Assembly (NCBI GenBank): GCA_017558105.1
Contig: JAFYWI010000002.1
Span: forward strand, 2,152 to 66,151
Length of the DNA: 64,000 bases
From: Clostridia bacterium
Lineage (GTDB): Bacteria; Bacillota; Clostridia; Christensenellales; Borkfalkiaceae
Direction: 5' to 3'
Part shown: piece after piece, positions 504 to 60,766 of the stretch
How positions within the stretch are numbered: position 1 is the first letter of the stretch
Layout: each line of letters starts with the position of its first letter
Made by a program: the position numbers and the translations under genes
The notes under the pieces: model-generated
What the model saw: only the letters and a program-made list of their open reading frames with translations
What the model was told of the DNA's origin: nothing
Databases searched by the model: none

Positions 504-538
504 AAAATTTTTTAAGTAAACTATATATACGTTAAAAA

Positions 539-570
539 ACGGACTTTGATTTTTCAAAGTCCGTTTTTTT
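539..570 (+). terminator. Rho-independent terminator of the permease gene
   Basis: acggactttga / tcaaagtccgt stem followed by a T7 run. Confidence 0.8.
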
Positions 571-1756: not shown

Positions 1757-2854
1757 TTATATAACCAACTTAGAATACAACCCGTAAACTTCTTTACTAC
1801 CCAAAGTTACAGGGGTGTTTTTTAGCCTTTCAACGTTTACCGACGACGTAAGATTTTCTAAATGCTCTTCTTTTACACGTGGTTTAGCAAGGTTAAACTC
1901 TAAAATTAATTGATTAAAAATTTCAATGCCGTCTTCAGCCTTTTTTCCACCCATTGCTTGGGCAATTTGTGTAAGCACGCTTTTTAAATAATCTTCTCCA
2001 CGAACGTCTATGCACTTGTTAGAATTATCTATTATATACTTCCAAGTAAGTGGCAAACATACGCTTACCGCGTGCCCGTGTGCTAAACCATAGTTAGAAG
2101 TTATTTTATAACTCATTGCGTGAGCAGCTGTGGTTTTAGATATATTTATTGCCTTACCAGCAAGGTTTGAGGCTATAATAATTTCTTTTGAACTTTTTTC
2201 TTTGTTTTCAAAAACGTATTCTCTTGCAGAACGCATTATCATTTCTATTGCGCATTTAGAATACTCTTTGCTTTCATCGGTAGAATAAACCGACCAAAAA
2301 CTTTCTATTGCTTGACATAAAGCATCTAAAAGAGTGCTTTTTTTCTGATAATCTGAAAGATTGCGCAAAAAGGAATAATCTAACACTGCAAGTGATGGGA
2401 GTAAACTTTGGTGAGCCACAGAATACTTTTTGCCATTTTTATAAATAACTGCAAAGTGTGTTGCCTCACTTCCCGTGCCAGCTGTAGTAGGAATTGCTAC
2501 TAAAGGAATTTTTGTATCTTTATATTCACACCTAACTAAATCTGTATTTTTATCGCCCGCAGAAAAAAGTTTAATACATTTAGCAGTATCTATTGCGCTA
2601 CCTCCACCTACTGCTATAATTGCATCACACCCGTTATCGTTAAAAACTTTAGCCCCCGTAATAGCCTGCTCGTATTGTGGATTAGGAGTAAAGTCACTAA
2701 ACCGTACGAAAGGTATATTTTGTGAATAAATATAGTCTTTTATTAATAGTTTATCAAAAGAGTTAGAACAAACTAGCATAAATTTTTTACTGCGCGAAAG
2801 TTGTAAAAACTCTTTAATAACGCTATAATCTCCGTTTTCAATAATAACAGACAA
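1757..2854 (-). CDS. Group III iron-containing alcohol dehydrogenase, probable phosphonoacetaldehyde reductase (PhpC/FomC-like)
   Basis: 365 aa. GGGSAIDTAKC and the His cluster AAHAMSY...LAHGHAV are typical of Fe-ADHs. It lies between ppd and the pepM fusion with gaps of 10 and 3 nt. Confidence 0.7.
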   Translation of the reverse strand: MSVIIENGDYSVIKEFLQLSRSKKFMLVCSNSFDKLLIKDYIYSQNIPFVRFSDFTPNPQYEQAITGAKVFNDNGCDAIIAVGGGSAIDTAKCIKLFSAGDKNTDLVRCEYKDTKIPLVAIPTTAGTGSEATHFAVIYKNGKKYSVAHQSLLPSLAVLDYSFLRNLSDYQKKSTLLDALCQAIESFWSVYSTDESKEYSKCAIEMIMRSAREYVFENKEKSSKEIIIASNLAGKAINISKTTAAHAMSYKITSNYGLAHGHAVSVCLPLTWKYIIDNSNKCIDVRGEDYLKSVLTQIAQAMGGKKAEDGIEIFNQLILEFNLAKPRVKEEHLENLTSSVNVERLKNTPVTLGSKEVYGLYSKLVI

Positions 2855-2857
2855 TCT

Positions 2858-4867
2858 CTATTCCTCCGGTATTAACGTTATTATTTCTTTTATAGACATA
2901 CACATATCGTCAGCTTCTTTTGCCCTATGGTTTAATAGAATTGTTTTAGCAACGTTTTGCATTGCAGGAAATCCACTTCTAGTAAGTTGATTTGCATAAA
3001 TTACAACGTTAACCCCTCTATCCTTAAACTCTTGTTCCGTTACGGAATTAAACGAAGTAGGCACTACGACTATAGGTGTGATTTCATTTTCTGCCCTAAA
3101 TTTTTCAACAAATTCAAAAATCTCAGTAGGGTCTTTTTTTCTACTGTGAATCATTATTGCGTCTGCCCCAGCTTTACTGAACGCAAAAGCACGAGTTAGC
3201 GCATCTTCCATACCGCGTTCTAAAATTAAACTTTCAATACGCGCACAAATCATAAAGTCTTTAGTTTTTTGAGCCTTTTTCCCTGCTTGAATTTTAGCAC
3301 AAAAATTTTCTATACTATCTTGGGTTTGAACCACTTCTGCCCCAAATAAAGAGTTCTTTTTAAGCCCCGTTTTATCTTCAATAATAACCATAGAAACGCC
3401 CATGCGTTCTAAACTTCTTACGGTATAAATAAAATGCTCGGTAAGTCCACCCGTATCGCCGTCAAAAATTATTGGCTTCGTTGTTACTTCCATTATATCG
3501 TCAATCGTTCTAAACCTTGAAGTCATATCAACGAGTTCAATATCTGGTTTACCTTTTGCAGTACTATCGCATAGCGAAGATACCCACATCGCATCAAACT
3601 GATAAGTCTTGCCGTCTTTTAATACCTTCGTGTTTTCAGCAATAAGCCCCGTTATCCCGCTATGTGCTTCAATAGCGTTTATGCAACCTTTCATTGCCAA
3701 AAGTTTTTTTAGCCTGCCACGACGCATATCTGGCATAGAAAGTTGTTGGCGAGAAGCCTTTTCAAGTTCAATATGTTTTGGGTCTTGTGAATAAGGGAAT
3801 TCTACTAATTTACCACCATAACTTTCTAAAATAGAAATAACTTCATCTCTTATAGGCTTTTGAAAACCTTCTTTCCAGTCGTCGCCGTGTACTACCACGT
3901 CTGGTTTTAACGTGGTTAAAATTTCTTTATAAGATAAATTTTTTTGTTCTATTACCTTAGATACTCCGTTTATATTTTCTACTAAGGTTTTTCTCTCTTC
4001 AAAACTCATTAACGGATAACGTTTATAACTAGCAACTGCCTCGTCTGAAAGAACCCCTACGATTAATTTTCCGTGCCTTTGCGCTTTCTTTAATATGCTT
4101 ATATGCCCACTATGTAACATATCAGTAGAAAAACACATATATACGATTTTATTTTCTATTTCTTTAAGTTTTTTTGAAACCATTGCTAAATCTTCAGGCG
4201 TATCTATTTCTGCGCAAATATCGTTTGCAAAATCAATAGGAACAATTTCGCACTTATCTGATATATTGTTAAACGCGTTTTCTGCGTAACATTTATCTTC
4301 CTTTCTTTCGCAAAATTCTACTATTTCATTAAGCCAACAATTCCACTCTTTTTTATTTAGTTTATAAAGTGGTTGCGCTGCTACGGCATTGGTAAAAAAC
4401 TCAATACCAATTTTTTCCACCCTACCGTCGTGTATTACAGCCTTAAAATCTTTTTCTGGTAAAGGAAGCGTAGTACTTACCGTAACACAGCTTTTTTTGC
4501 TATTTACTACGTTTTCAAAAACAGATTCATCAAAAACAAGGTCTCCGTGCATCATAACGATATCTTCGTCTTTAAGCTCTTCCCTTGCACAATAAATTGA
4601 ATAAATATAATTAGTTTTATCGTAAATAGGGTTATTTACGAAAGTATAATTTAATTCGTAACCTAAATTTTTACAATAATCTACTAACACGTTATCAAAA
4701 TACCCCGTGGTCATAACAACTTCTTTTATGCCAGCGTTAGATATAATTTTTAACTGCCTAGATAAAATTGTTTCTTCGTTATTTATTTCAGTCATACATT
4801 TAGGGTGTTCGCTTGTAAAAGCCCCCATTCTGCGCCCTAAGCCAGAGTTAAGTATTAATGCCTTCAT
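2858..4867 (-). CDS. pepM: Tri-domain fusion: LicC/MobA-like NTP-transferase + HxGH cytidylyltransferase + PEP phosphomutase
   Basis: 669 aa. N-terminus MKALILNSGLGRRMG (GxGxR nucleotidyltransferase). Middle region FSTDMLHSGHISILKKA (HxGH class cytidylyltransferase). C-terminus FDGDTGG...MVIIEDKTGLKKNSLFG (PEP-mutase EDKxxxxxNS signature). Confidence 0.85.
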   Translation of the reverse strand: MKALILNSGLGRRMGAFTSEHPKCMTEINNEETILSRQLKIISNAGIKEVVMTTGYFDNVLVDYCKNLGYELNYTFVNNPIYDKTNYIYSIYCAREELKDEDIVMMHGDLVFDESVFENVVNSKKSCVTVSTTLPLPEKDFKAVIHDGRVEKIGIEFFTNAVAAQPLYKLNKKEWNCWLNEIVEFCERKEDKCYAENAFNNISDKCEIVPIDFANDICAEIDTPEDLAMVSKKLKEIENKIVYMCFSTDMLHSGHISILKKAQRHGKLIVGVLSDEAVASYKRYPLMSFEERKTLVENINGVSKVIEQKNLSYKEILTTLKPDVVVHGDDWKEGFQKPIRDEVISILESYGGKLVEFPYSQDPKHIELEKASRQQLSMPDMRRGRLKKLLAMKGCINAIEAHSGITGLIAENTKVLKDGKTYQFDAMWVSSLCDSTAKGKPDIELVDMTSRFRTIDDIMEVTTKPIIFDGDTGGLTEHFIYTVRSLERMGVSMVIIEDKTGLKKNSLFGAEVVQTQDSIENFCAKIQAGKKAQKTKDFMICARIESLILERGMEDALTRAFAFSKAGADAIMIHSRKKDPTEIFEFVEKFRAENEITPIVVVPTSFNSVTEQEFKDRGVNVVIYANQLTRSGFPAMQNVAKTILLNHRAKEADDMCMSIKEIITLIPEE

Positions 4868-4886: not shown

Positions 4887-4915
4887 ATTATAACAAATAC
4901 TAATTCGTTTGTCAA
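4887..4915 (-). promoter_or_regulatory. Consensus sigma-A promoter for the pepM-adh-ppd operon
   Basis: On the minus strand: TTGACA, 17 nt, TATAAT. The -10 box ends 20 nt upstream of the ATG and GGAG lies at 4873-4876. Confidence 0.6.
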
Positions 4916-5035: not shown

Positions 5036-5064
5036 TTGCAAAATAAACTTAATTGTGGTATACT
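5036..5064 (+). promoter_or_regulatory. Sigma-A promoter (extended -10) for the divergent transferase operon
   Basis: TTGCAA, 17 nt, TATACT, with a TGn extension (tgg) immediately upstream of the -10 box. Confidence 0.5.
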
Positions 5065-5088
5065 ATTTACGTTTTTATAAGAGCAAAG

Positions 5089-6921
5089 ATGGAGCATATG
5101 AAGAAAATGGAAAAAAACGAACAACTCACCTTTAAACAAAGAACGATAAAGCGTATTTTACCTACGCTTCTTTTCTCTTTAGCAATTCCTTTTATAACGT
5201 GTATTTGCATTCCGTTTGAAATTTTTGCAAACAATATTGAGCAATTTGTTTTTTCTGTAAAAGACTTTTTGCCTTTATCTATTTTAATATCTTTAGGCGC
5301 AACGATAATTTTCTTTTTTTCTCTTTTATTTTTACCAGAAAAAGCATACAGAATAGTTGCTTCAATATACTTGGCTTTAGCATTTTTATTTTTTATTCAA
5401 AGCAATTATCTTAACGTTGGAGTACGTTCGCTTGCTGGCGACGGATTAGGCTCTAGCATATCGTTAGTTAGCAAAATAATTAATCTTTTTGTTTGGCTGT
5501 TGGTTTTAGGCGTTGCCGTGTTTTTTGCAGTTTTTAAAAAGTGGCACGATATTTTATCTATGGTTGCAGTAGGGCTTTGCGCGGTTATTACTATTTCTTC
5601 TCTTATGTCTCCTTTCGTGCTTGCAATTTCTACAAAAAACGTTTTTAAAACTAAGGCTGAACGCGTAAACCTAAACGGAGAAGACACGTTTAATATTTTA
5701 ACTACAAAAAACCTTACTAATATTTCTTCTAATGGTAACGTATTTATTTTCGTTGTAGACGTTATGGATAAAACGTTCGTTGAAGAAGCCATTGAAAAGC
5801 GTCCTGAAATTTTTAATAGTTTAGATGGGTTTACTTATTTCGAAGATAACCTTTCTCTTTTTGGGCACACTTTCCCTTCCGTTGCAAACATTATTACGGG
5901 CGCAGAGTTTGAAGTTACAAAGGAACGTTCTAAATATTTAAATAACGCTTATCAAAACGCCGTTCCTTTAGATATTTTAGATGAAAACGGATATCAAATT
6001 AATATTTTTAGTCAAGGTTTTTACGCTTATGAAGATGCTAGTTATATGCCTTCATACGTTAGTAACGTTTCAGAAGCAGTAAAAACTAACGTTAAACATC
6101 CTTTTTTATTAACTGCAAACTTTATTCAAATTGCTTTATACCGTTGTTTCCCTCTATTTTTAAAAAATTTAGTAGGTAACGTAGATTCAGCTGAAACCAA
6201 CAACTTCGTTTCTTGCGAAGATGAAAACGGGTACAAACAATATTCAACCGACTTAAAAGAAGTATACAACACAATTCAAAGTTCTAAAGACGATGGTAAA
6301 TTTACCACGATAAACGATAAAAAAGTGTTTTCACTCGTTCACGTTTATGGTTGCCATAGCATTAAGTATAACGCAAATTGGCAAAAACCTACCGGGAAAG
6401 ACAGAAACGATATAACCCTTTCTCTTATGAATAGTTTTAGCATTATAAACGAATACATAAAGGCAATGAAAGATATTGGCGTTTACGAAGAATCTACTAT
6501 TCTTATTTTAGGCGATCACGGAAAACCAATAAACGACTTGAAAGATCTTTCTCGCCCAATCCAAACAGGATTATTTATTAAACAAAAAGGCGCTGGAAAC
6601 GTTGCCGGCGAAGGTTACAAAATTAGTAGTAGCCAAGTAAGTCATTCTCAAATTTGGTCAACTATATTTGATAGTGAAAATATAACTCTTACTCCAGAAC
6701 AACAAGAAGCGTATAATCAAACGACGTTTAAGAAACTTAACCCTGAAGATAAATCGCATTTTGATATTTTAGAAGACGAAAACGTTACTAGATATTATTT
6801 CTGGCATACCTATGCTGGCGATTGCGATGAGTATAAGTACAAAATTACTGGTGCTGGCAATAACTTTAACAATTGGGAAATGTACGAACACATACACACG
6901 GATAAATTTCTTATGAACTAA
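5089..6921 (+). CDS. Polytopic membrane protein with an extracytoplasmic alkaline-phosphatase-superfamily (LtaS/sulfatase/phosphotransferase-like) domain
   Basis: The track ORF starts at TTG 5053 and I prefer ATG 5089 (MEHMKKMEK). About 5-6 N-terminal TM helices are followed by a soluble domain with FIFVVDVMD and ILILGDHGKP motifs, as in LtaS/EptA-type enzymes. Confidence 0.55.
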   Translation: MEHMKKMEKNEQLTFKQRTIKRILPTLLFSLAIPFITCICIPFEIFANNIEQFVFSVKDFLPLSILISLGATIIFFFSLLFLPEKAYRIVASIYLALAFLFFIQSNYLNVGVRSLAGDGLGSSISLVSKIINLFVWLLVLGVAVFFAVFKKWHDILSMVAVGLCAVITISSLMSPFVLAISTKNVFKTKAERVNLNGEDTFNILTTKNLTNISSNGNVFIFVVDVMDKTFVEEAIEKRPEIFNSLDGFTYFEDNLSLFGHTFPSVANIITGAEFEVTKERSKYLNNAYQNAVPLDILDENGYQINIFSQGFYAYEDASYMPSYVSNVSEAVKTNVKHPFLLTANFIQIALYRCFPLFLKNLVGNVDSAETNNFVSCEDENGYKQYSTDLKEVYNTIQSSKDDGKFTTINDKKVFSLVHVYGCHSIKYNANWQKPTGKDRNDITLSLMNSFSIINEYIKAMKDIGVYEESTILILGDHGKPINDLKDLSRPIQTGLFIKQKGAGNVAGEGYKISSSQVSHSQIWSTIFDSENITLTPEQQEAYNQTTFKKLNPEDKSHFDILEDENVTRYYFWHTYAGDCDEYKYKITGAGNNFNNWEMYEHIHTDKFLMN

Positions 6922-6931
6922 AGGTAAAATC

Positions 6932-9043
6932 ATGGATAAAATTATGTACTACGTTTGTATCCCTTTTGGATACATTATGAAATGGTGCTATCAATTAGTA
7001 GGAAACTACGGCATAGCGATTATTTTATTTACACTTGCTACTAAATTAGTTTTACTACCTATTTCGGTTTGGATTCACAAAAACTCTATATTAATGGTAA
7101 AAATTCAACCAGAAATAAACTTCATGAAGGCTAGGCTTCATGGTAATATGGATGCTATTGCAGACGAGCAAGCAAAAATATTTAAACGCGAGCACTACCA
7201 CCCTATGCTATCGCTTGTACCTTTATTATTGCAAATATTTTTATTGCTTGCAGTAGTTTATATTATTTACCATCCAATGAATTACTTGCTTGGAATATCA
7301 GACCAAGCAATAAGTAGCCTTGCTACCTACCTTAAATTAGACGTTTCGCAATCTTCTTACCAACTTTATATTATTGACGCAATAAAATCTGGTACGATTA
7401 CGGCAAGTTTAAGTTCAGAAATAGGGCTTTCCCCTGCTGTTCTTGGTGATATTATTAGCAAGGTAAACGGTTTCAACTTAAACTTTATTGGAATTAATCT
7501 TTCTATCGTACCGGCAGAAGTTTGGGGTTGGTTTATACTTGTTCCTATCGTTGCTGGTGCATCTTCTTGGTTTATGAGTTTTACACAAAACGCATCTAAC
7601 GTTATTCAACATGAACAAAGTAAAATTAACCAATATACTATTATGGCAATAAGCGTTGGGCTTTCGCTTTATTTAGGGCTATTTGTTCCTACAGGACTTG
7701 CTATTTATTGGGTTTCTAGCAACCTTTTATCCGTTTTACAAATGTACTGCTTAAACGCCGTTATAAACCCTAAAAAATACGTAGACCACGACGCACTAGA
7801 ACAATCTAGAAAAGTGCTTAACGATGCAAAATCTTATGGCAAAATAGACAAACACGACCCTTTGTTTAAGAAAATGAAAAAACGCGAAAAAGTAGATTAT
7901 AAAGCATTTATGCGCGTTGCCAATAAACACATCGTTATATATTCTGAAAAAAGTGGCTTTTATAAGTATTTTAAAGACGTAATGGACGAAATGTTAAAAC
8001 GTTCTAACGTGGTTATTCATTACGTTACCAACGATTATAACGACCAAATTTTTGAAGTGGCAAAAAAAGAACCACGTATAAAACCTTATTACATAAGCCT
8101 AAAGAAAACCATCCTTTTAATGATGATGGTAGAAACTGACGTTTTTATTATGACTACGCCAGATTTAAATAAGTATTACCTTAAAAAATCTTTTACGAAA
8201 AAAGACATTGAATATATCTATATCCCACACGATTCAATGAGTGCGCATAAAAACTTTAACGAAGGCGCTTTTGACGAATTTAATACCATACTTTGCGTAG
8301 GTAAGCATTTTGTAGATGAAATTAGAGCAATTGAAAAACTTTACAAATTACCTGCCAAAAACCTTGTGGAATTTGGTTTTCCACTTCTTGATAATTTAGT
8401 AGAAACCGTTAAAGCACAACTACCTAAAAAAACCAACAAAACAAAAAAAGAAATTTTAATTGCACCTTCTTGGCAAGAAGAAAACATTTTAGAGAGTTGT
8501 ATAGATACTATTATTGAAAAACTTTATAGCGATAATTATCACATAACGGTAAGACCTCACCCTGAATTCGTTAAAAGATTTGGCTACAAATTAAATCAAT
8601 TAGTTAATAAATACTCTAATTACGATAAGGATAAACTTACTTTTGAATTAGATTTCTCTAGTAATAGCTCCGTTTATAATGCAGACCTTATGATAACGGA
8701 CTGGTCTGGAATAGCTGCAGAATATAGTTTTGCAACGGGTAGACCTACTATTTTTATTAATACTAAAATGAAGGTAAATAACCCTAATTGGCAAAATATT
8801 GATATAACGCCTATTGAAATTAAGCTAAGAAGTGAAATCGGTATCCCCGTAGATTTAGATAACCTTGTTAATATAGATAAAATCGTAAGCGATGCTATAA
8901 CTAACGCTAAAAAATACAAAGAGAAAATTGAAGAATGCTTTAAAACCTTTACTTTTAACCATGGTACAGCTGCTAAAGTTGGCGCTGATTACATTCTTAA
9001 AAGTATTATTAATAAACAACAAAAAGCAAAAGAAAAAAATTAA
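6932..9043 (+). CDS. Fusion of a YidC/Oxa1-type membrane insertase domain with a CDP-glycerol glycerophosphotransferase (TagB/TagF family) domain
   Basis: 703 aa. The N-terminal ~280 aa carry GIAIILFTLATKLVLLPISV...QPE...LVPLLLQI...GLAIYWVSSNLLSVLQ (YidC pattern). The C-terminal ~400 aa carry ADLMITDWSGIAAEYSFATGRPTIFI (Glyphos_transf pattern). Confidence 0.75.
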   Translation: MDKIMYYVCIPFGYIMKWCYQLVGNYGIAIILFTLATKLVLLPISVWIHKNSILMVKIQPEINFMKARLHGNMDAIADEQAKIFKREHYHPMLSLVPLLLQIFLLLAVVYIIYHPMNYLLGISDQAISSLATYLKLDVSQSSYQLYIIDAIKSGTITASLSSEIGLSPAVLGDIISKVNGFNLNFIGINLSIVPAEVWGWFILVPIVAGASSWFMSFTQNASNVIQHEQSKINQYTIMAISVGLSLYLGLFVPTGLAIYWVSSNLLSVLQMYCLNAVINPKKYVDHDALEQSRKVLNDAKSYGKIDKHDPLFKKMKKREKVDYKAFMRVANKHIVIYSEKSGFYKYFKDVMDEMLKRSNVVIHYVTNDYNDQIFEVAKKEPRIKPYYISLKKTILLMMMVETDVFIMTTPDLNKYYLKKSFTKKDIEYIYIPHDSMSAHKNFNEGAFDEFNTILCVGKHFVDEIRAIEKLYKLPAKNLVEFGFPLLDNLVETVKAQLPKKTNKTKKEILIAPSWQEENILESCIDTIIEKLYSDNYHITVRPHPEFVKRFGYKLNQLVNKYSNYDKDKLTFELDFSSNSSVYNADLMITDWSGIAAEYSFATGRPTIFINTKMKVNNPNWQNIDITPIEIKLRSEIGIPVDLDNLVNIDKIVSDAITNAKKYKEKIEECFKTFTFNHGTAAKVGADYILKSIINKQQKAKEKN

Positions 9044-9406: not shown

Positions 9407-9422
9407 AATACATTTTAAAAAT

Positions 9423-9457
9423 AAAAACGGACTTTGAATTTTCAAAGTCCGTTTTTG
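9423..9457. terminator. Bidirectional hairpin terminator, near-copy of 539-570
   Basis: acggactttgaa / ttcaaagtccgt stem flanked by A and T runs. It serves the remnant and the convergent yccF. Confidence 0.7.
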
Positions 9458-9475
9458 TATTTATTTAATTAAATT

Positions 9476-55293: not shown

Positions 55294-56445
55294 TTAAAGT
55301 TCTAAATCTTTAAATAGTTTAGCAATTTTTTGTTTCTTTTCTTCGCTAACTTTTTTGTTTGCTTTTAGTTCAAAAGAAGCCTTTTCTCTTTTTTCTTTGT
55401 TTAACAAAGAAAACCAACGTCTTACAATAAAAAATGGATAAAGTATTTTCCATTTCCTTAAAACCGGGTATCTTATTTCCATAGTCTTAAATGGTGGAAA
55501 TATTCTTTGAAAGAAATATTTTAAACTTCCTTTTTTAAGTTTCTGTATGGTCGTTGAGTTTGTAGTATCTCCGTACATCCCAGAATAAAGGGCGAAATCT
55601 TTTAACGACAAAACTATATCATCGCCACCTTCATCAGCAAGTAAATATTTAGTGGTTTTTTCCAAAACGTCCGCAAACCTTTTTAGTCCTGCTTGGCTTA
55701 ATAAACTGTTTAATACATCTCTCTCTAAGTTGAATTTTTGCAGTATAATTAAAGTATCTATAAAAGGTCTTATACCACAACCACCACCCCTAACGTGTTT
55801 TGCAATATGTGCTATATGATAGAAGTAAAAGAATTCTTCTTTCATACTTTTTTCATAACTATCCGTTTGATATAAATAGTTCCAAACTTCATCTAGCACG
55901 TTTTTTATTTTTACATCTGTTTCTACCAATGCAAAATGAAGTTCAAAATGAATACCACTTTCAGAAACCATTTGAACGTCGTGGTCGCTTTGCCCATCTA
56001 CTTTATAAAGTAAACGTTCTTGCAAAAAAGAAATTGCATTGTTAACGTCGTTAGATTTTACTAAAATATCTATATCGCAACTGGTTCTTTGCCAAGTCGT
56101 AGAATAAAAATTACGAATAACGCTCCCTTTTAGCGGAATAAAAGGTATTTTTGCTTCTTCTAAAGTTTTGCAAATTTGTTGCAGTTCATAACGTTGTTGT
56201 TCATAACGATAAACTGCAACGTTTCTTTCATATAAGAAATGTTTTTTTGCGTTAGGGTTTTCTTCTAATAACCCGTTTTTTTCTAACGCGTTGCCAATTA
56301 AATGTGCAAGGTCGTGCCGTTTTGCAAGTGAAAATAGAGCAGGCAAAATTTCTGGAGTTATTAAGTTTTTTATTTCTTCCGTTAGTTCGGTTTTATTTAT
56401 TTCAAACCTAATTAGCGCGAAAAATATTTTTTCTAGTTGTTGCAT
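55294..56445 (-). CDS. Uncharacterised nucleotidyltransferase-family protein (capsule-locus type)
   Basis: 383 aa. PLKG...DIDILV is reminiscent of minimal nucleotidyltransferase folds. Assignment is tentative. Confidence 0.4.
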   Translation of the reverse strand: MQQLEKIFFALIRFEINKTELTEEIKNLITPEILPALFSLAKRHDLAHLIGNALEKNGLLEENPNAKKHFLYERNVAVYRYEQQRYELQQICKTLEEAKIPFIPLKGSVIRNFYSTTWQRTSCDIDILVKSNDVNNAISFLQERLLYKVDGQSDHDVQMVSESGIHFELHFALVETDVKIKNVLDEVWNYLYQTDSYEKSMKEEFFYFYHIAHIAKHVRGGGCGIRPFIDTLIILQKFNLERDVLNSLLSQAGLKRFADVLEKTTKYLLADEGGDDIVLSLKDFALYSGMYGDTTNSTTIQKLKKGSLKYFFQRIFPPFKTMEIRYPVLRKWKILYPFFIVRRWFSLLNKEKREKASFELKANKKVSEEKKQKIAKLFKDLEL

Positions 56446-56477
56446 TTTTGCCCCTTTTATATCTTAACATACTACCT

Positions 56478-57212
56478 TTATAGTAGCCCTTTATATTCCT
56501 TTTGAACCTTTTCGTAACTTTCTAAATTGCCAATATCGTAACGTTTACCCGGCATTACAAAAGCGTGAACGGTTGTTTTAGTGCATAGCCAAGCGATATA
56601 ACTACCTGGGGCATCTACACCACAACCTTCTTCTATGCCTTCTTTAACAAGTTTTGCATCTTCCTTAGTGTAATAATAAAATGGTGGGCAAGCCCAGTTA
56701 GATTTTGGCTCTTGTGGTTTTTCGGTTAAACGAATAATTTTATCCGTTTCGTCTACTTCTGCCACACCCGTTTTCTTTAATTTTTCTAAATTACCTTCGT
56801 AATAACGCATTATGCAAGAAGTGCCTTTTTCTTTTGCATACAATATAAACTTGGTTAGGCTAAAGTCTAACAAATTATCGCCTGCAACAACTAATATATC
56901 ATCATCTACGCCTAGTTTTTCTATGGCAAACTGAATATCTTTAACTGCACCAAGGCGTGTTTCGTTAGAAGTTGTGCCATCGTCTACAATAGTAATTTTT
57001 TTATTGCTTTCTTTCGCCCAATTAGAAAAAATTTGGGCAAATTTATGGTTAGAAACAACTATATATTCGTCTACCCAACCTAAACTATCTATATCGTCAA
57101 TAAGCCAATCTAAAATAGTTTTGTCTTGCACCTTTAATAGGGACTTTGGAAAGTTTTCTGTTAAAGGATATAGCCTAGTAGCATAGCCCGCCGCCAAAAT
57201 TAAACATTTCAT
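56478..57212 (-). CDS. Sugar-1-phosphate nucleotidyltransferase
   Basis: 244 aa with MKCLILAAGYATRLYPLT and VVAGDNL. It overlaps the kinase stop by 4 nt. Confidence 0.8.
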   Translation of the reverse strand: MKCLILAAGYATRLYPLTENFPKSLLKVQDKTILDWLIDDIDSLGWVDEYIVVSNHKFAQIFSNWAKESNKKITIVDDGTTSNETRLGAVKDIQFAIEKLGVDDDILVVAGDNLLDFSLTKFILYAKEKGTSCIMRYYEGNLEKLKKTGVAEVDETDKIIRLTEKPQEPKSNWACPPFYYYTKEDAKLVKEGIEEGCGVDAPGSYIAWLCTKTTVHAFVMPGKRYDIGNLESYEKVQKEYKGLL

Positions 57213-58381
57213 ACTTCTACCCCGTTTGCAATATTACAAATATGAACAGAGAATTTTCCTTTTAAGTTAGGAAATGCTTTTAGGTATTCTTCGGTAATTT
57301 TTTTAGTAATGCTTTCTTCGTATTCTGGGTTAATTATTGCTATACAACAACCCTTAAAACCAGCACCACTAAAACGGCCACCGTAAATACCTTCTGTTTT
57401 TAGCATAATTTCGTAAAGAGTTTTAAGTTCTTCTGAACCCGTTTCGTAATTGCATATAGAAGATTTACCGCTTTCAAAAGAAAGTTTACCAAACGTTTCT
57501 ATATCTCCGTTTTTATAAGCATCTACGCCTTTTTGTACACGAATAGATTCCGTGTAAAAATGTTCTGCACGTTTGTGCCAACTTTCTGGAAGTTTATCTT
57601 TATATTGCAAATATACTTCGTAAGGAACGTCGCTAAGATAGGTTTCGTTTATCTTGCCGTATTCCATACCACTAAACGCCTTAAGTGCATATGCTGCGGC
57701 ACGACATTCATCTACTCGCATATTATACTTACTGCCTGCAAGGTTTCTTTCTATGCCTGAAAAGAAAATTGCAATTTTAAAAGGCTTCATATTAACAGGG
57801 GTTGGAATTAACTCATAAGTATCGTCTTTTGTGTTTAAATATAATAAGTTGTTCTTTTTAGAAAAAACTTCGCAAGATTGGTCTAGTTTACCACAAGAAA
57901 CGCCAACATATTTGTTTTCTGCCGCTTGAGCAGTTAAAATCATTTCTAGTTTGCTAAGTTTTATGTTATTAACCTTACATAGTGCCGATAAAAACGCTAA
58001 CGTTACCGCAGCAGAAGAAGAAAGACCACCAATTGGTAGCGTTCCTTCAATAACACCACTAAGCCCAACTCTTAAAGGATATTTTTTAGAAAGCATTAAG
58101 GTTGCGCCACGCAAATAATCTGCCCAGTCGTTTTCTTTTGTTTCCAAAACAGAACTAACGTGCCATTGCGCACGCTTACTAAACTGTAACGAATTTAACT
58201 CAATAACTCCGTTTTGCTTTGGAGCATAGGCAATGTTTATGCCTTTATCTATGGCAAAACCCGTTATCTTGCCTAGTTGGTGGTCTATATGCGCACCAAT
58301 AGGGCAAATACGGTAAGGGCAAAAAGATACTGCCATAGGTTCTTTTTTATAAGTTTCTACAAATTTTTCTACACAACGCAT
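57209..58381 (-). CDS. GHMP-family sugar 1-kinase (galactokinase-like)
   Basis: CPIGAHIDHQLG (galactokinase-signature-like) and PIGGLSSSAA (GHMP motif). ATG 58381 with GGAG 9 nt upstream is preferred to the TTG at 58396. Confidence 0.75.
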   Translation of the reverse strand: MRCVEKFVETYKKEPMAVSFCPYRICPIGAHIDHQLGKITGFAIDKGINIAYAPKQNGVIELNSLQFSKRAQWHVSSVLETKENDWADYLRGATLMLSKKYPLRVGLSGVIEGTLPIGGLSSSAAVTLAFLSALCKVNNIKLSKLEMILTAQAAENKYVGVSCGKLDQSCEVFSKKNNLLYLNTKDDTYELIPTPVNMKPFKIAIFFSGIERNLAGSKYNMRVDECRAAAYALKAFSGMEYGKINETYLSDVPYEVYLQYKDKLPESWHKRAEHFYTESIRVQKGVDAYKNGDIETFGKLSFESGKSSICNYETGSEELKTLYEIMLKTEGIYGGRFSGAGFKGCCIAIINPEYEESITKKITEEYLKAFPNLKGKFSVHICNIANGVEV

Positions 58382-59571
58382 TAAAATTTTCTCCAAACCA
58401 TTTTATCTACTACGCCCGTATAACTTTGAATAATTTTTACTACTTTTGTTGAAACGTTTTCTTCAACGTAATCTGGAACAGGTATTCCGTGATTACCATC
58501 TTTTGTTAAACTAACAGCCGTTTCTACTGCTTGTAAAAGGTGTTTTTCATCTATGCCAGCAAGCACGAAACAAGCCTTGTCTAACGCTTCTGGGCGTTCT
58601 GTGCTTGTACGAATACAAACTGCTGGGAAAGGTTTACCAATACTTGTAAAGAAAGAACTTTCTTCTGGTAAGGTACCACTATCTGACACAACTGCAAAAG
58701 CGTTCATTTGTAAGTTGTTGTAGTCGTGGAAGCCTAAAGGTTGGTTTTGAATAACACGCTTATCTAACTTAAAGCCAGTTGCTTCTAAACGCTTTTTGCT
58801 TCTTGGGTGACAAGAATATAAAATAGGCATATTATATTTTTCTGCCAACTTATTAATTGCAGTAAATAATGAATTAAAGTTCTTTTCCGTATCGATATTT
58901 TCTTCTCTGTGTGCAGAAAGAAGAATATATTTTTTAGGTTCTAATCCAAGTTTAGTTAAAACGTTGCTTTCTTCTATTTCTTTTAGGTTGCTATGTAATA
59001 CTTCTGCCATAGGAGAGCCTGTAACGTAAGTTCTTTCTTTAGGCAAGCCACATTCTGCTAAATATCTTCTAGCGTGTTCGCTATATGCTAGGTTTACGTC
59101 GGAAATAATATCTACAATGCGCCTATTAGTTTCTTCTGGTAAACATTCATCTTTACAACGGTTACCTGCTTCCATATGGAAAATTGGAATATGTAAACGC
59201 TTTGCAGAAATTGCAGAAAGGCAACTATTAGTATCGCCTAAAATTAACAATGCATCTGGTTTAATTGCACTCATAAGTTTATAAGAACAATTTATAATAT
59301 TGCCAACGGTTGCACCTAAATCGTCGCCAACGGCATCCATATAAACTTCTGGGTCTTTAAGTTTTAAGTCCTTAAAGAATACGCCGTTTAAGTTATAGTC
59401 GTAATTTTGACCGGTATGTGCCAAAATAGTATCAAAATACTCACGGCACTTGTTTATAACTGCACCTAAACGAATTATTTCTGGCCTTGTACCTACTATA
59501 ATAAGTAGTTTTAATTTTCCATTTTCTTTGAACTTAACGTCGCTGTAATCTAACTTAATTTTCTTTTCCAT
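58381..59571 (-). CDS. fnlC: UDP-N-acetylglucosamine 2-epimerase family (FnlC/CapG-type, UDP-L-FucNAc pathway)
   Basis: 396 aa with LLIIVGTRPEIIRL...HTGQNYDY...HMEAGNR. Third gene after fnlA-fnlB. Confidence 0.8.
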   Translation of the reverse strand: MEKKIKLDYSDVKFKENGKLKLLIIVGTRPEIIRLGAVINKCREYFDTILAHTGQNYDYNLNGVFFKDLKLKDPEVYMDAVGDDLGATVGNIINCSYKLMSAIKPDALLILGDTNSCLSAISAKRLHIPIFHMEAGNRCKDECLPEETNRRIVDIISDVNLAYSEHARRYLAECGLPKERTYVTGSPMAEVLHSNLKEIEESNVLTKLGLEPKKYILLSAHREENIDTEKNFNSLFTAINKLAEKYNMPILYSCHPRSKKRLEATGFKLDKRVIQNQPLGFHDYNNLQMNAFAVVSDSGTLPEESSFFTSIGKPFPAVCIRTSTERPEALDKACFVLAGIDEKHLLQAVETAVSLTKDGNHGIPVPDYVEENVSTKVVKIIQSYTGVVDKMVWRKF

Positions 59572-59599
59572 ATTAAAAATAAATTCCTTTTGATTTTCC

Positions 59600-60766
59600 T
59601 TATTCTACTATTTCAAAAAAAGTATCTGGTTTATTAGTGTCAAATTGTTCGTTTGCCCACATTATAGTAACCAAGTTTTCTGTTTTAGATAGGTTTATTA
59701 TATTGTGGGTATACCCAGGTAACATATGTATTGCTTTAATTTCATCACCACTAACTTCAAAATTTAGCACTTCGTTAGTGCCAATTTTTCTTTGTTGAAT
59801 TAAGCCTTTGCCACTAACTACAATAAAAAATTCCCATTTCGTATTGTGCCAATGTTGCCCTTTTGTTATGCCAGGCTTAGAAATGTTTACCGAAAATTGA
59901 CCGCACTTTTCCGTTTTTAATAATTCGGTAAAACTGCCCCTATCGTCTTTATTCATTTTTAAGTTAAACGCCACTTTTTCTTTTGGCAAATAACTTAAAT
60001 AGGTAGAATAAAGTTTTTTTGCAAAACTACCGTTAGGTATTTCGGGCATAATTAAGGTGTTTGTTTGTTCTTTAAACGAATACAACAAATCTACAATTTC
60101 GCCTAAGGTTACTTCGTGCTCTACGCTAACTTTACAAAAATCACCTTGCCTATTTTCTTTACCTTCTAGGGAATTTAACATTTCGCTAACTAAATCGTCT
60201 ATATATATAAGGGTTAAGGCAATATTTCTATCGTTAACGGTTATAGGCAAGTCGCAAGCAATGTTATTACAAAACGTTGCTACTGCGCTATTGTAGTTTG
60301 GCCTACACCATTTACCAAAGACGTTAGGAAACCTATATACTAGCATTTTTGCGCCTGTTTCTTTGCCATATTCAAAAAATAAATCTTCGCCAGCCTTTTT
60401 GCTTTTGCCATATTCGCTACCAGCATATCTGCCTTCTAGCGTTGCTTGAATAGAAGAAGAAAGCATTACCGGGCAAGTATTATTATATTTTTTTAACGTG
60501 TTAAGTAAAGTAGATGCAAAGCCAAAATTGCCTTGCATAAACTCTTCTTCCGTTTTAGGTCTGTTTACTCCTGCTAGGTTAAACACGAAATCTGCTTTAG
60601 CGCAATAGTTCTCTAATTCTTCTAAAGTGCTATCTATATCGTATTCAAGAACTTCTTCAATAATTAAGTTTGGGCGTGTTTTATCTTTGCCTGCTTTTAT
60701 GTTTTTAAGGCTTTCTACAAGGTTTTTACCAACAAAACCCTTTGCGCCTGTTATAAGAATTTTCAT
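59600..60766 (-). CDS. fnlB: CapF/FnlB-type bifunctional reductase (SDR N-terminal domain, cupin C-terminal domain)
   Basis: 388 aa with MKILITGAKGFVGKNL and a C-terminal cupin region DDRGSFTEL...GQHWHNTKWEFF. Confidence 0.8.
   Translation of the reverse strand: MKILITGAKGFVGKNLVESLKNIKAGKDKTRPNLIIEEVLEYDIDSTLEELENYCAKADFVFNLAGVNRPKTEEEFMQGNFGFASTLLNTLKKYNNTCPVMLSSSIQATLEGRYAGSEYGKSKKAGEDLFFEYGKETGAKMLVYRFPNVFGKWCRPNYNSAVATFCNNIACDLPITVNDRNIALTLIYIDDLVSEMLNSLEGKENRQGDFCKVSVEHEVTLGEIVDLLYSFKEQTNTLIMPEIPNGSFAKKLYSTYLSYLPKEKVAFNLKMNKDDRGSFTELLKTEKCGQFSVNISKPGITKGQHWHNTKWEFFIVVSGKGLIQQRKIGTNEVLNFEVSGDEIKAIHMLPGYTHNIINLSKTENLVTIMWANEQFDTNKPDTFFEIVE

Follow-up and report, generated by a model that had tools for sequence, protein, structure and literature searches.

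A PEP mutase triple fusion with two nucleotidyltransferase folds and the apparent hand-over of phosphonate activation from its Fom1-type to its PntC-like domain

The window, a 64,000-nt stretch of contig JAFYWI010000002.1 from a Clostridia bacterium (coordinates count from its first letter), encodes a 669-amino-acid triple fusion in which a GxGxR nucleotidyltransferase (domain 1), an HxGH cytidylyltransferase-like domain (domain 2), and a phosphoenolpyruvate (PEP) mutase (PepM, domain 3) are joined in one chain. We found that the second signature motif of HxGH cytidylyltransferases, TxG[IV]SST, is missing from domain 2 both in the window protein and in all of its 120 close homologues. From sequence comparison, we lean with modest confidence toward a reading in which domain 1 makes CMP-HEP, the cytidine monophosphate (CMP) adduct of 2-hydroxyethylphosphonate (HEP), and the conserved HxGH core of domain 2 binds a ligand but is a poor catalyst. 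The fusion architecture is already known; the loss of TxGISST is what is new here, and it bears on the puzzle of surface-phosphonate clusters that carry two unrelated cytidylyltransferases.

The gene is a single intact open reading frame of the minus strand (4867 to 2858), and the plus-strand frame over the same interval is riddled with stops. Pfam places PF12804 at residues 3-123 (46.1 bits, cut-off 27), PF01467 at residues 249-343 (56.4 bits, cut-off 21), and PF13714 at residues 386-644 (181.8 bits, cut-off 31.5), while the PEP mutase model TIGR02320 gives 402 bits against a cut-off of 319.55, which together with EDKx5NS assigns domain 3 to the Ppm family. An AlphaFold2 model from a 61-row alignment contains three folded domains (pLDDT 87.6), for which Foldseek returned LicC (1JYK, target TM 0.86), the Fom1 cytidylyltransferase (5X3D, TM 0.94, root-mean-square deviation (rmsd) 1.0), and PepM structures, respectively. 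An earlier annotation from the letters of the stretch (the sequence-only reading) had described two nucleotidyltransferase folds and a PEP mutase in one 669-residue chain; the reading frame, the Pfam boundaries, and the structural model all agree with it, and the motifs that it quoted, GxGxR, HxGH, and EDKTGLKKNS, lie at residues 9-23 (GxGxR..PK), 252-255 (HSGH), and 497-506. All 119 homologues listed besides the window protein are full-length (668-673 residues) with all three Pfam domains, and the few with names are Clostridia or Ruminococcaceae. The triple fusion is thus not an assembly artefact, and its recurrence in other genomes likewise excludes a chance fusion. The composition near the locus is unremarkable.

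Domain 2 is, by its sequence, Fom1-like and not TagD-like. Its best match in the Protein Data Bank (PDB) is the Fom1 cytidylyltransferase 5X3D (E 3.9e-40), compared with 1.5e-11 for TagD (1COZ), and it shows the HxGH fold, the YKR and HGDDW motifs, and the fusion to PepM that define the Fom1 type. TagD shares the HxGH fold and GDDW with domain 2; however, the residues Lys44 and Lys46 of TagD align with Tyr281 and Arg283, the same as in Fom1, the RYVDEVI-type dimer motif and RTxGISTT (roles in PMC8262930) have no counterpart, and the TagD model TIGR01518 gives 53.3 bits, far under its cut-off of 165.4. The TagD part of the label TagD/ECT-like given by the sequence-only reading is not upheld. 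Fom1 of Streptomyces wedmorensis (PDB 5X3D), an HxGH domain fused to PepM, shows ~50% identity and an rmsd of 1.0, and its cytidylyltransferase produces HEP-CMP (PMC9088020). The Fom1 system, with Fom2 and FomC, has YKR, HGDDW, and the phosphonopyruvate decarboxylase (Ppd) and iron-containing alcohol dehydrogenase (Fe-ADH) partners in common with the window. In contrast to Fom1, the window protein carries the extra N-terminal GxGxR domain and lacks TxGISST, and the neighboring genes are those of cell-surface transfer instead of antibiotic tailoring.

In our alignment, TxG[IV]S[ST]T is present in Fom1, TagD, and ECT, and motifs of this type build the cytidine triphosphate (CTP) site together with HxGH (PMC2784872, PMC8262930). 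In PfCCT, replacing either one of the two final residues of the motif with alanine brings the kcat of 1.45 per second down to 0.001, with only a three-fold drop in CTP binding (PMC6060094). The equivalent site in the window protein spans residues 360-366 (about 3770-3790), where the last two positions are His365 and Ile366. We classified 153 cytidylyltransferase-PepM (CyT-PepM) genes from the fetched loci, excluding L074 (no anchor) and leaving genes without an in-frame EDKx5NS uncounted. The motif is intact in 0/76 triple fusions and in 0/31 genes from loci where the GxGxR subfamily is separate or on the Fe-ADH (10 of these keep it partly, and two of the 31, at L019 and L165, are second copies next to a triple fusion). 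In contrast, it is intact in 18/18 HEP loci without a GxGxR enzyme. Short or unclassified loci keep it in 5 of 16 cases; eight of the 11 lost cases lie near contig ends, and the other three (L201, L202, and L204) were considered as counter-examples and dismissed, as a GxGxR enzyme was found for each of them, adjacent, elsewhere in the genome, and 13 kb off, respectively. As an out-of-sample check, 15/15 Bacteroidales HEP loci fetched after the hypothesis agreed with the motif-loss prediction, and the three such genomes that were checked all lack the GxGxR subfamily genome-wide.

Further erosion of domain 2 appears only alongside a GxGxR enzyme, as NSAH in Segatella copri, HPGI at L191, and a Gly-to-Ala change in five of 67 more distant fusions, in which the first His of HxGH is also lost once. 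The rate of domain 2 relative to that of PepM is 1.3-1.7 with a GxGxR enzyme versus 0.78 without. A freely decaying relic is excluded, since the conservation of domain 2 equals that of domain 1 (means of 0.865 and 0.826 over 120 close homologues; PepM, 0.930). With TxGISST lost and the rest of the core kept, domain 2 probably binds nucleotide or product and catalyzes weakly or not at all, and because it lacks a motif needed for catalysis, domain 1 probably performs the activation. The sequence-only reading had named missing catalytic residues in one of the two transferase domains as a result that would count against it, and this applies in part, the HxGH domain being without TxGISST. The L191 gene (8114-9415) belongs to an aminoethylphosphonate (AEP) cluster with a fusion of PntC and AEP transaminase (AEPT), and its PepM-fused domain, without the second His, possibly represents an independent decay event.

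The residues and partners of domain 1 suggest an active enzyme that is directed at HEP. A profile of 59 sequences matched LicC (7e-28, 101 bits), PntC (5.5e-22, 82 bits), and IPCT (5e-17, 66 bits) in the PDB. The PntC signature GxG(T/S)Rx4-8PK, with the catalytic Arg/Lys and the acids D106, E220, and D222, is present; R13, K23, D109, E196, E220, and D222 of domain 1 correspond to R15, K25, D106, E196, E220, and D222 of Tde-PntC, and these six residues are invariant in the 59 diverse relatives and in 120/120 close homologues. R15A and K25A reduce the activity of PntC, and its Glu104 touches the AEP amine (PMC6697681). Domain 1 has the same fold as PntC and Tde1415 of Treponema denticola (PDB 6PD1, 6PD2) and retains the second amine ligand, Glu196, but Glu104 is replaced by His107. 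Among the loci shown, the residues at this motif are HGD for 16 of 18 of the Fe-ADH type (two were unread) and E-x-D for 11 of 12 with an AEP transaminase. LicC (1JYK) and IPCT (2XME, 4JD0) share the GxGxR..PK fold and the metal-binding acids with domain 1, which differs from them in the His preceding the metal Asp and in the tie of its subfamily to ppm clusters.

The partners of domain 1 vary with lineage. Tde1415 is PntC fused to the AEP transaminase that makes its substrate (PMC6697681), and the relatives of domain 1 are likewise joined to a substrate-making enzyme, here an Fe-dehydrogenase instead of a transaminase, with HEP as the predicted substrate in place of AEP. We took the best 150 relatives at 50% clustering, which leaves few triple-fusion rows, and scanned 50 long ones; 46 carry an Fe-ADH domain, four of them with LicD as well. 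The subfamily adjoins CyT-PepM in 16/16 and 10/10 sampled genomes, and among loci of at least 10 kb an Fe-ADH lies nearby in 42/45 fused and 28/29 separate cases. Domain 1 is found by itself, on the Fe-ADH, on PepM, or in fusions of nucleotidyltransferase, cytidylyltransferase, and ADH, so the best view of the triple fusion is that it is one gene order among several taken by a four-function cassette and not a channel. Phosphonopyruvate decarboxylase pulls the PepM equilibrium. The sequence-only reading had suggested that a physical coupling of the first and last steps may help with this pull, which agrees neither with the role of the decarboxylase nor with a GxGxR domain that stands alone, on the dehydrogenase, or on PepM by lineage. 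Among the other arrangements, P0169, P0218, P0230, and P0267 combine synthesis, activation, and transfer in one nucleotidyltransferase-Fe-ADH-LicD chain, and P0170 is a single nucleotidyltransferase-rhomboid fusion. P0128 and L211 (7287-9509, genome G1456) are nucleotidyltransferase-cytidylyltransferase-Fe-ADH fusions without PepM; in G1456, CyT-PepM, Ppd, and LicD lie on a different contig (L202), and the pathway is thus split.

The genes downstream of the triple fusion on the same strand encode an Fe-ADH and Ppd (Table 1). The HEP branch is characterized by Ppm, Ppd, and a PF00465 Fe-ADH without AEPT (PMC8942020), and the presence of the three together without AEPT points to this branch. The AEP route is ruled out, as no match to the AEP transaminase model TIGR03301 above its cut-off was found in the genome (1.07 Mb searched, 85% complete), with the Fe-ADH in its place; the same genome contains no detectable LicD, which removes LicD as the acceptor enzyme here, and no TIGR01518 match apart from domain 2. 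The Fe-ADH homologue beside the triple fusion of Segatella copri is annotated as phosphonoacetaldehyde reductase. The best explanation of the operon, in terms of predicted functions, is that its product would be CMP-activated HEP for cell-surface decoration. The predicted promoter lies ~20 nt upstream of the triple-fusion start codon and is followed by a strong ribosome-binding site. The two near-identical hairpins (534-570 and 9421-9458) flank the entire five-gene divergent unit and are the sole two matches to their pattern in the genome. Elsewhere in the window, 55294-60766 on the minus strand holds sugar-nucleotide genes, namely epimerase-like, GHMP kinase-like, and nucleotidyltransferase-like reading frames and a second PF12804 protein.

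Table 1. Features of the triple-fusion locus in the window (strand "." marks a bidirectional element)
Feature	Position	Strand	Basis
Triple fusion of GxGxR nucleotidyltransferase, HxGH cytidylyltransferase-like domain, and PEP mutase (PepM)	2858..4867	-	Pfam, TIGR02320, AlphaFold2, Foldseek
Domain 1, residues 1-237, LicC/PntC-type GxGxR nucleotidyltransferase, proposed HEP cytidylyltransferase	4157..4867	-	Motifs, alignment
Domain 2, residues 240-376, Fom1-type HxGH; HSGH, YKR, HGDDW present, TxGISST gone	3740..4150	-	Alignment
Domain 3, residues 379-669, PEP mutase, EDKx5NS at residues 497-506	2861..3733	-	Motif, TIGR02320
Fe-containing alcohol dehydrogenase, 365 residues, proposed phosphonoacetaldehyde reductase making HEP	1757..2854	-	PF00465, PF25137 above cut-off
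Phosphonopyruvate decarboxylase (Ppd), 369 residues	637..1746	-	TIGR03297, 473.9 bits (cut-off 312.5)
Sigma-70 consensus promoter, 12/12 matches, extended -10	4887..4915	-	Consensus match only
Bidirectional terminator-like hairpin after ppd	534..570	.	Near-identical copy at 9421-9458 past the YidC-TagF gene
Membrane protein, 622 residues, ~5 N-terminal hydrophobic segments, sulfatase/alkaline-phosphatase-like domain	5053..6921	+	PF00884, 22.5 bits (below cut-off 25); crude hydropathy
YidC-like domain fused to TagF-like (PF04464) domain, 703 residues; candidate CMP-HEP acceptor step	6932..9043	+	Pfam

The sequence-only reading had noted a TagF-type domain across the divergent promoter. It lies in the divergent unit, though not directly across the promoter but in the second gene (6932-9043), where it forms the C-terminal half of a protein with an N-terminal YidC-like domain. 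PF04464 scores 45.7 bits on this protein (cut-off 22.1) and matches 10 of 11 aligned relatives, and a separate YidC gene elsewhere in the genome rules the fusion out as the housekeeping YidC. PDB searches with the TagF-like alignment returned no solved relative, and those with the sulfatase-like protein returned no solved relative and nothing informative; the latter protein is a candidate outward phosphonate transferase, and the two may constitute a dedicated phosphonate transfer module. Using profiles built for this analysis, we found a TagF-like gene at 14, LicD at 13, and neither at 18 of the 45 triple-fusion loci of at least 10 kb. The YidC-type TagF module also occurs in eight of the 18 loci whose only transferase is the Fom1-type domain, where it would need CMP-HEP as the donor. 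The YidC-TagF fusion, often beside a sulfatase-like membrane protein, recurs near HEP cassettes in Clostridia-like genomes (L042, L043, L100, L115, L122, L154, L160, L203, and L207 besides the window), with YidC and TagF split at L016, L175, and L179; Bacteroidales have the TagF-like gene on its own, with proteins of 1000-1100 residues and weak YidC similarity encoded after it. Literature searches, with most subscription journals outside their reach, found no report of a YidC-TagF phosphonate partner and nothing on pepM with a glycerophosphotransferase or on the PEP mutase of Prevotella copri.

The three-domain architecture has been published before. In the count of Rice et al. 2019, Ppm-PF12804-PF01467 triple fusions number 42, or 2.8% of Ppm (Fig. 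2b), and the authors also recorded clusters in which one nucleotidyltransferase is fused and another lies nearby (PMC6697681). The window protein fits their definition, with PF12804, PF01467, and PF13714 above the gathering score in one chain; in the accessible part of that paper, such fusions are counted without assay or comparison of the two transferase domains. Among the genomes that we scored, triple fusions were found in 9/350 of the window's class, 2/301 of its order, 1/401 of its phylum (the window's own genome), and 1/401 of a Bacteroidales sample (the centre genome). Being catalogued and fairly common in gut anaerobes, the fusion per se is ordinary, and the novelty of a double-nucleotidyltransferase fusion implied by the sequence-only reading does not survive the published count. 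In Segatella copri (DSM 18205), WP_006848642.1, annotated aepX, is a 669-residue triple fusion like that of the window, followed by aepY, a phosphonoacetaldehyde reductase, and a CDP-glycerol glycerophosphotransferase family gene; unlike the window gene, it lies within a polysaccharide locus, and its HxGH is eroded further to NSAH. Its record (L092) is a plasmid of this culturable host. Three loci (L197, L019, and L165) have a second CyT-PepM gene besides the triple fusion, and in L197 HEP-type and AEP-type cassettes lie no more than 6 kb apart. At L190 (8175-10836), two tandem CyT-PepM-like genes precede Ppd, with neither Fe-ADH nor AEPT detected within 19 kb.

Several observations weigh against the division of labor proposed above. 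In AEP clusters with PntC, the motif is intact in 5/12 cases and partial in 1/12, so a GxGxR partner does not force its loss. Of the 18 motif-intact controls, 17 are Bacteroidota, and the contrast of 0/107 with 18/18 is confounded with descent; a PepM tree of 65 rows, in which every third row of the fused group and five more were kept, puts the full loss in one large clade and the partial erosion in another. The contrast thus represents a few lineages and not 125 independent cases. The gap in rate is modest when compared at matched distance, 0.88 (five pairs) versus 1.21-1.44. The core of domain 2 remains constrained, with H252, G254, H255, R292, and HGDDW invariant in the 120 close homologues, and Lys364/Tyr365 could replace the lost Ser/Thr contacts. 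In domain 1, the position of the phosphonate-binding Lys153 of PntC is Ile/Val; K139-D140-F141 is invariant nearby, and that K139 stands in for Lys153 is a guess. The best NCBIfam match of the Fe-ADH, TIGR03405, reaches 157 against a cut-off of 423.7.

An alternative that we judge unlikely but serious is that the HxGH domain, its pyrophosphate site remodelled, still does the work of the HEP cytidylyltransferase, with the GxGxR domain either redundant with it or used for a second acceptor. The nearest solved relative is an HEP-CMP maker, the core is strongly conserved, Lys plus an aromatic residue is common at 364-365, and the fusions P0128 and L211 retain the domain without PepM. However, domain 2 lacks the motif that PfCCT needs for catalysis, the first His or the Gly is absent from some copies, and the HEP loci that depend on HxGH alone keep the motif in 18/18 cases. 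It is improbable that the GxGxR domain cytidylylates phosphonoacetaldehyde before the Fe-dehydrogenase reduces the CMP adduct; the frequent Fe-ADH fusion (46/50) is compatible with either order and His107 suits a neutral substrate, but related Fe-ADHs are present at the 18 loci that have no transferase other than the Fom1-type domain, which is known to act on HEP, and PhpC-type enzymes act on and reduce free phosphonoacetaldehyde (PMC8942020).

The remaining alternatives invoke a CDP-alcohol. That the GxGxR domain makes CDP-glycerol or CDP-inositol for a polymer backbone, in the manner of IPCT, with HxGH making CMP-HEP, seems to us quite improbable. IPCT structures are the third-best family match, one with a small residue before the GD motif, and two glycerol-3-phosphate cytidylyltransferases lie outside the HxGH family (PMC8262930); on the other hand, LicC (101 bits) and PntC (82 bits) outscore IPCT (66 bits), the subfamily adjoins CyT-PepM in every sampled genome and follows the Fe-ADH instead of TagF, and the YidC-type TagF module occurs in 8/18 loci that lack the GxGxR domain. 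The sequence-only reading had proposed the reverse division, a CMP-phosphonate from one domain and CDP-glycerol from a TagD-like HxGH domain for the TagF-type domain. Its first half finds inferential support, the GxGxR domain being the most likely maker of the CMP-phosphonate; its second half is very improbable. The fold in common with TagD (E 1.5e-11), the PF04464 domain in the divergent unit, and the lack of another TagD in the 85% complete genome speak for it, but domain 2 is 29 orders of magnitude nearer to Fom1 (E 4e-40), Tyr takes the place of TagD Lys44, neither the RYVDEVI-type motif nor RTxGISTT is present, and TIGR01518 scores 53 against 165. Since TagF-like genes occur at just 14/45 triple-fusion loci and YidC-TagF is found in Fom1-only loci, the CDP-glycerol idea has little in its favor.

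The reading that we favor is activation by domain 1. By analogy with characterized families, PepM would convert PEP to phosphonopyruvate, Ppd would convert this to phosphonoacetaldehyde, pulling the equilibrium, and the Fe-dehydrogenase would reduce it to HEP, which domain 1, a His-type relative of PntC, would join with CTP to form CMP-HEP. Domain 2 would be the ancestral Fom1-type HEP cytidylyltransferase, its pyrophosphate-binding TxGISST lost in the lineages that carry the GxGxR enzyme. The likeliest recipient of CMP-HEP would be the TagF-like domain encoded in the divergent unit, for which it is plausibly similar enough to CDP-glycerol to act as donor, followed perhaps by the sulfatase-like membrane protein, with LicD presumably taking this role at other loci. 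A broader and distinctly speculative proposal, which we regard as rather doubtful in its entirety, is that within phosphonate clusters an enzyme of unrelated fold has replaced the ancestral activator: the His-type PntC would make CMP-HEP, the Fom1-type domain would be retained by selection as a non-catalytic CMP-HEP/CTP-binding regulator of the fused PepM that senses the product and restrains the committed step, C-P bond formation, and delivery would fall to an undescribed YidC-TagF and sulfatase-like module.

In a literature search that left most subscription journals outside, we found no precedent for what looks like a hand-over of activation from the Fom1-type domain to a PntC relative of the His type. 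The comparison predicts that an HxGH domain fused to PepM acts alone as activator where TxGISST is kept and that the job has passed to the PntC relative where the motif is lost. If true, this would define an HEP-specific PntC subfamily, would make His versus Glu a one-residue marker that separates HEP from AEP clusters, and would call for caution in annotating all CyT-PepM fusions as active Fom1-like enzymes.

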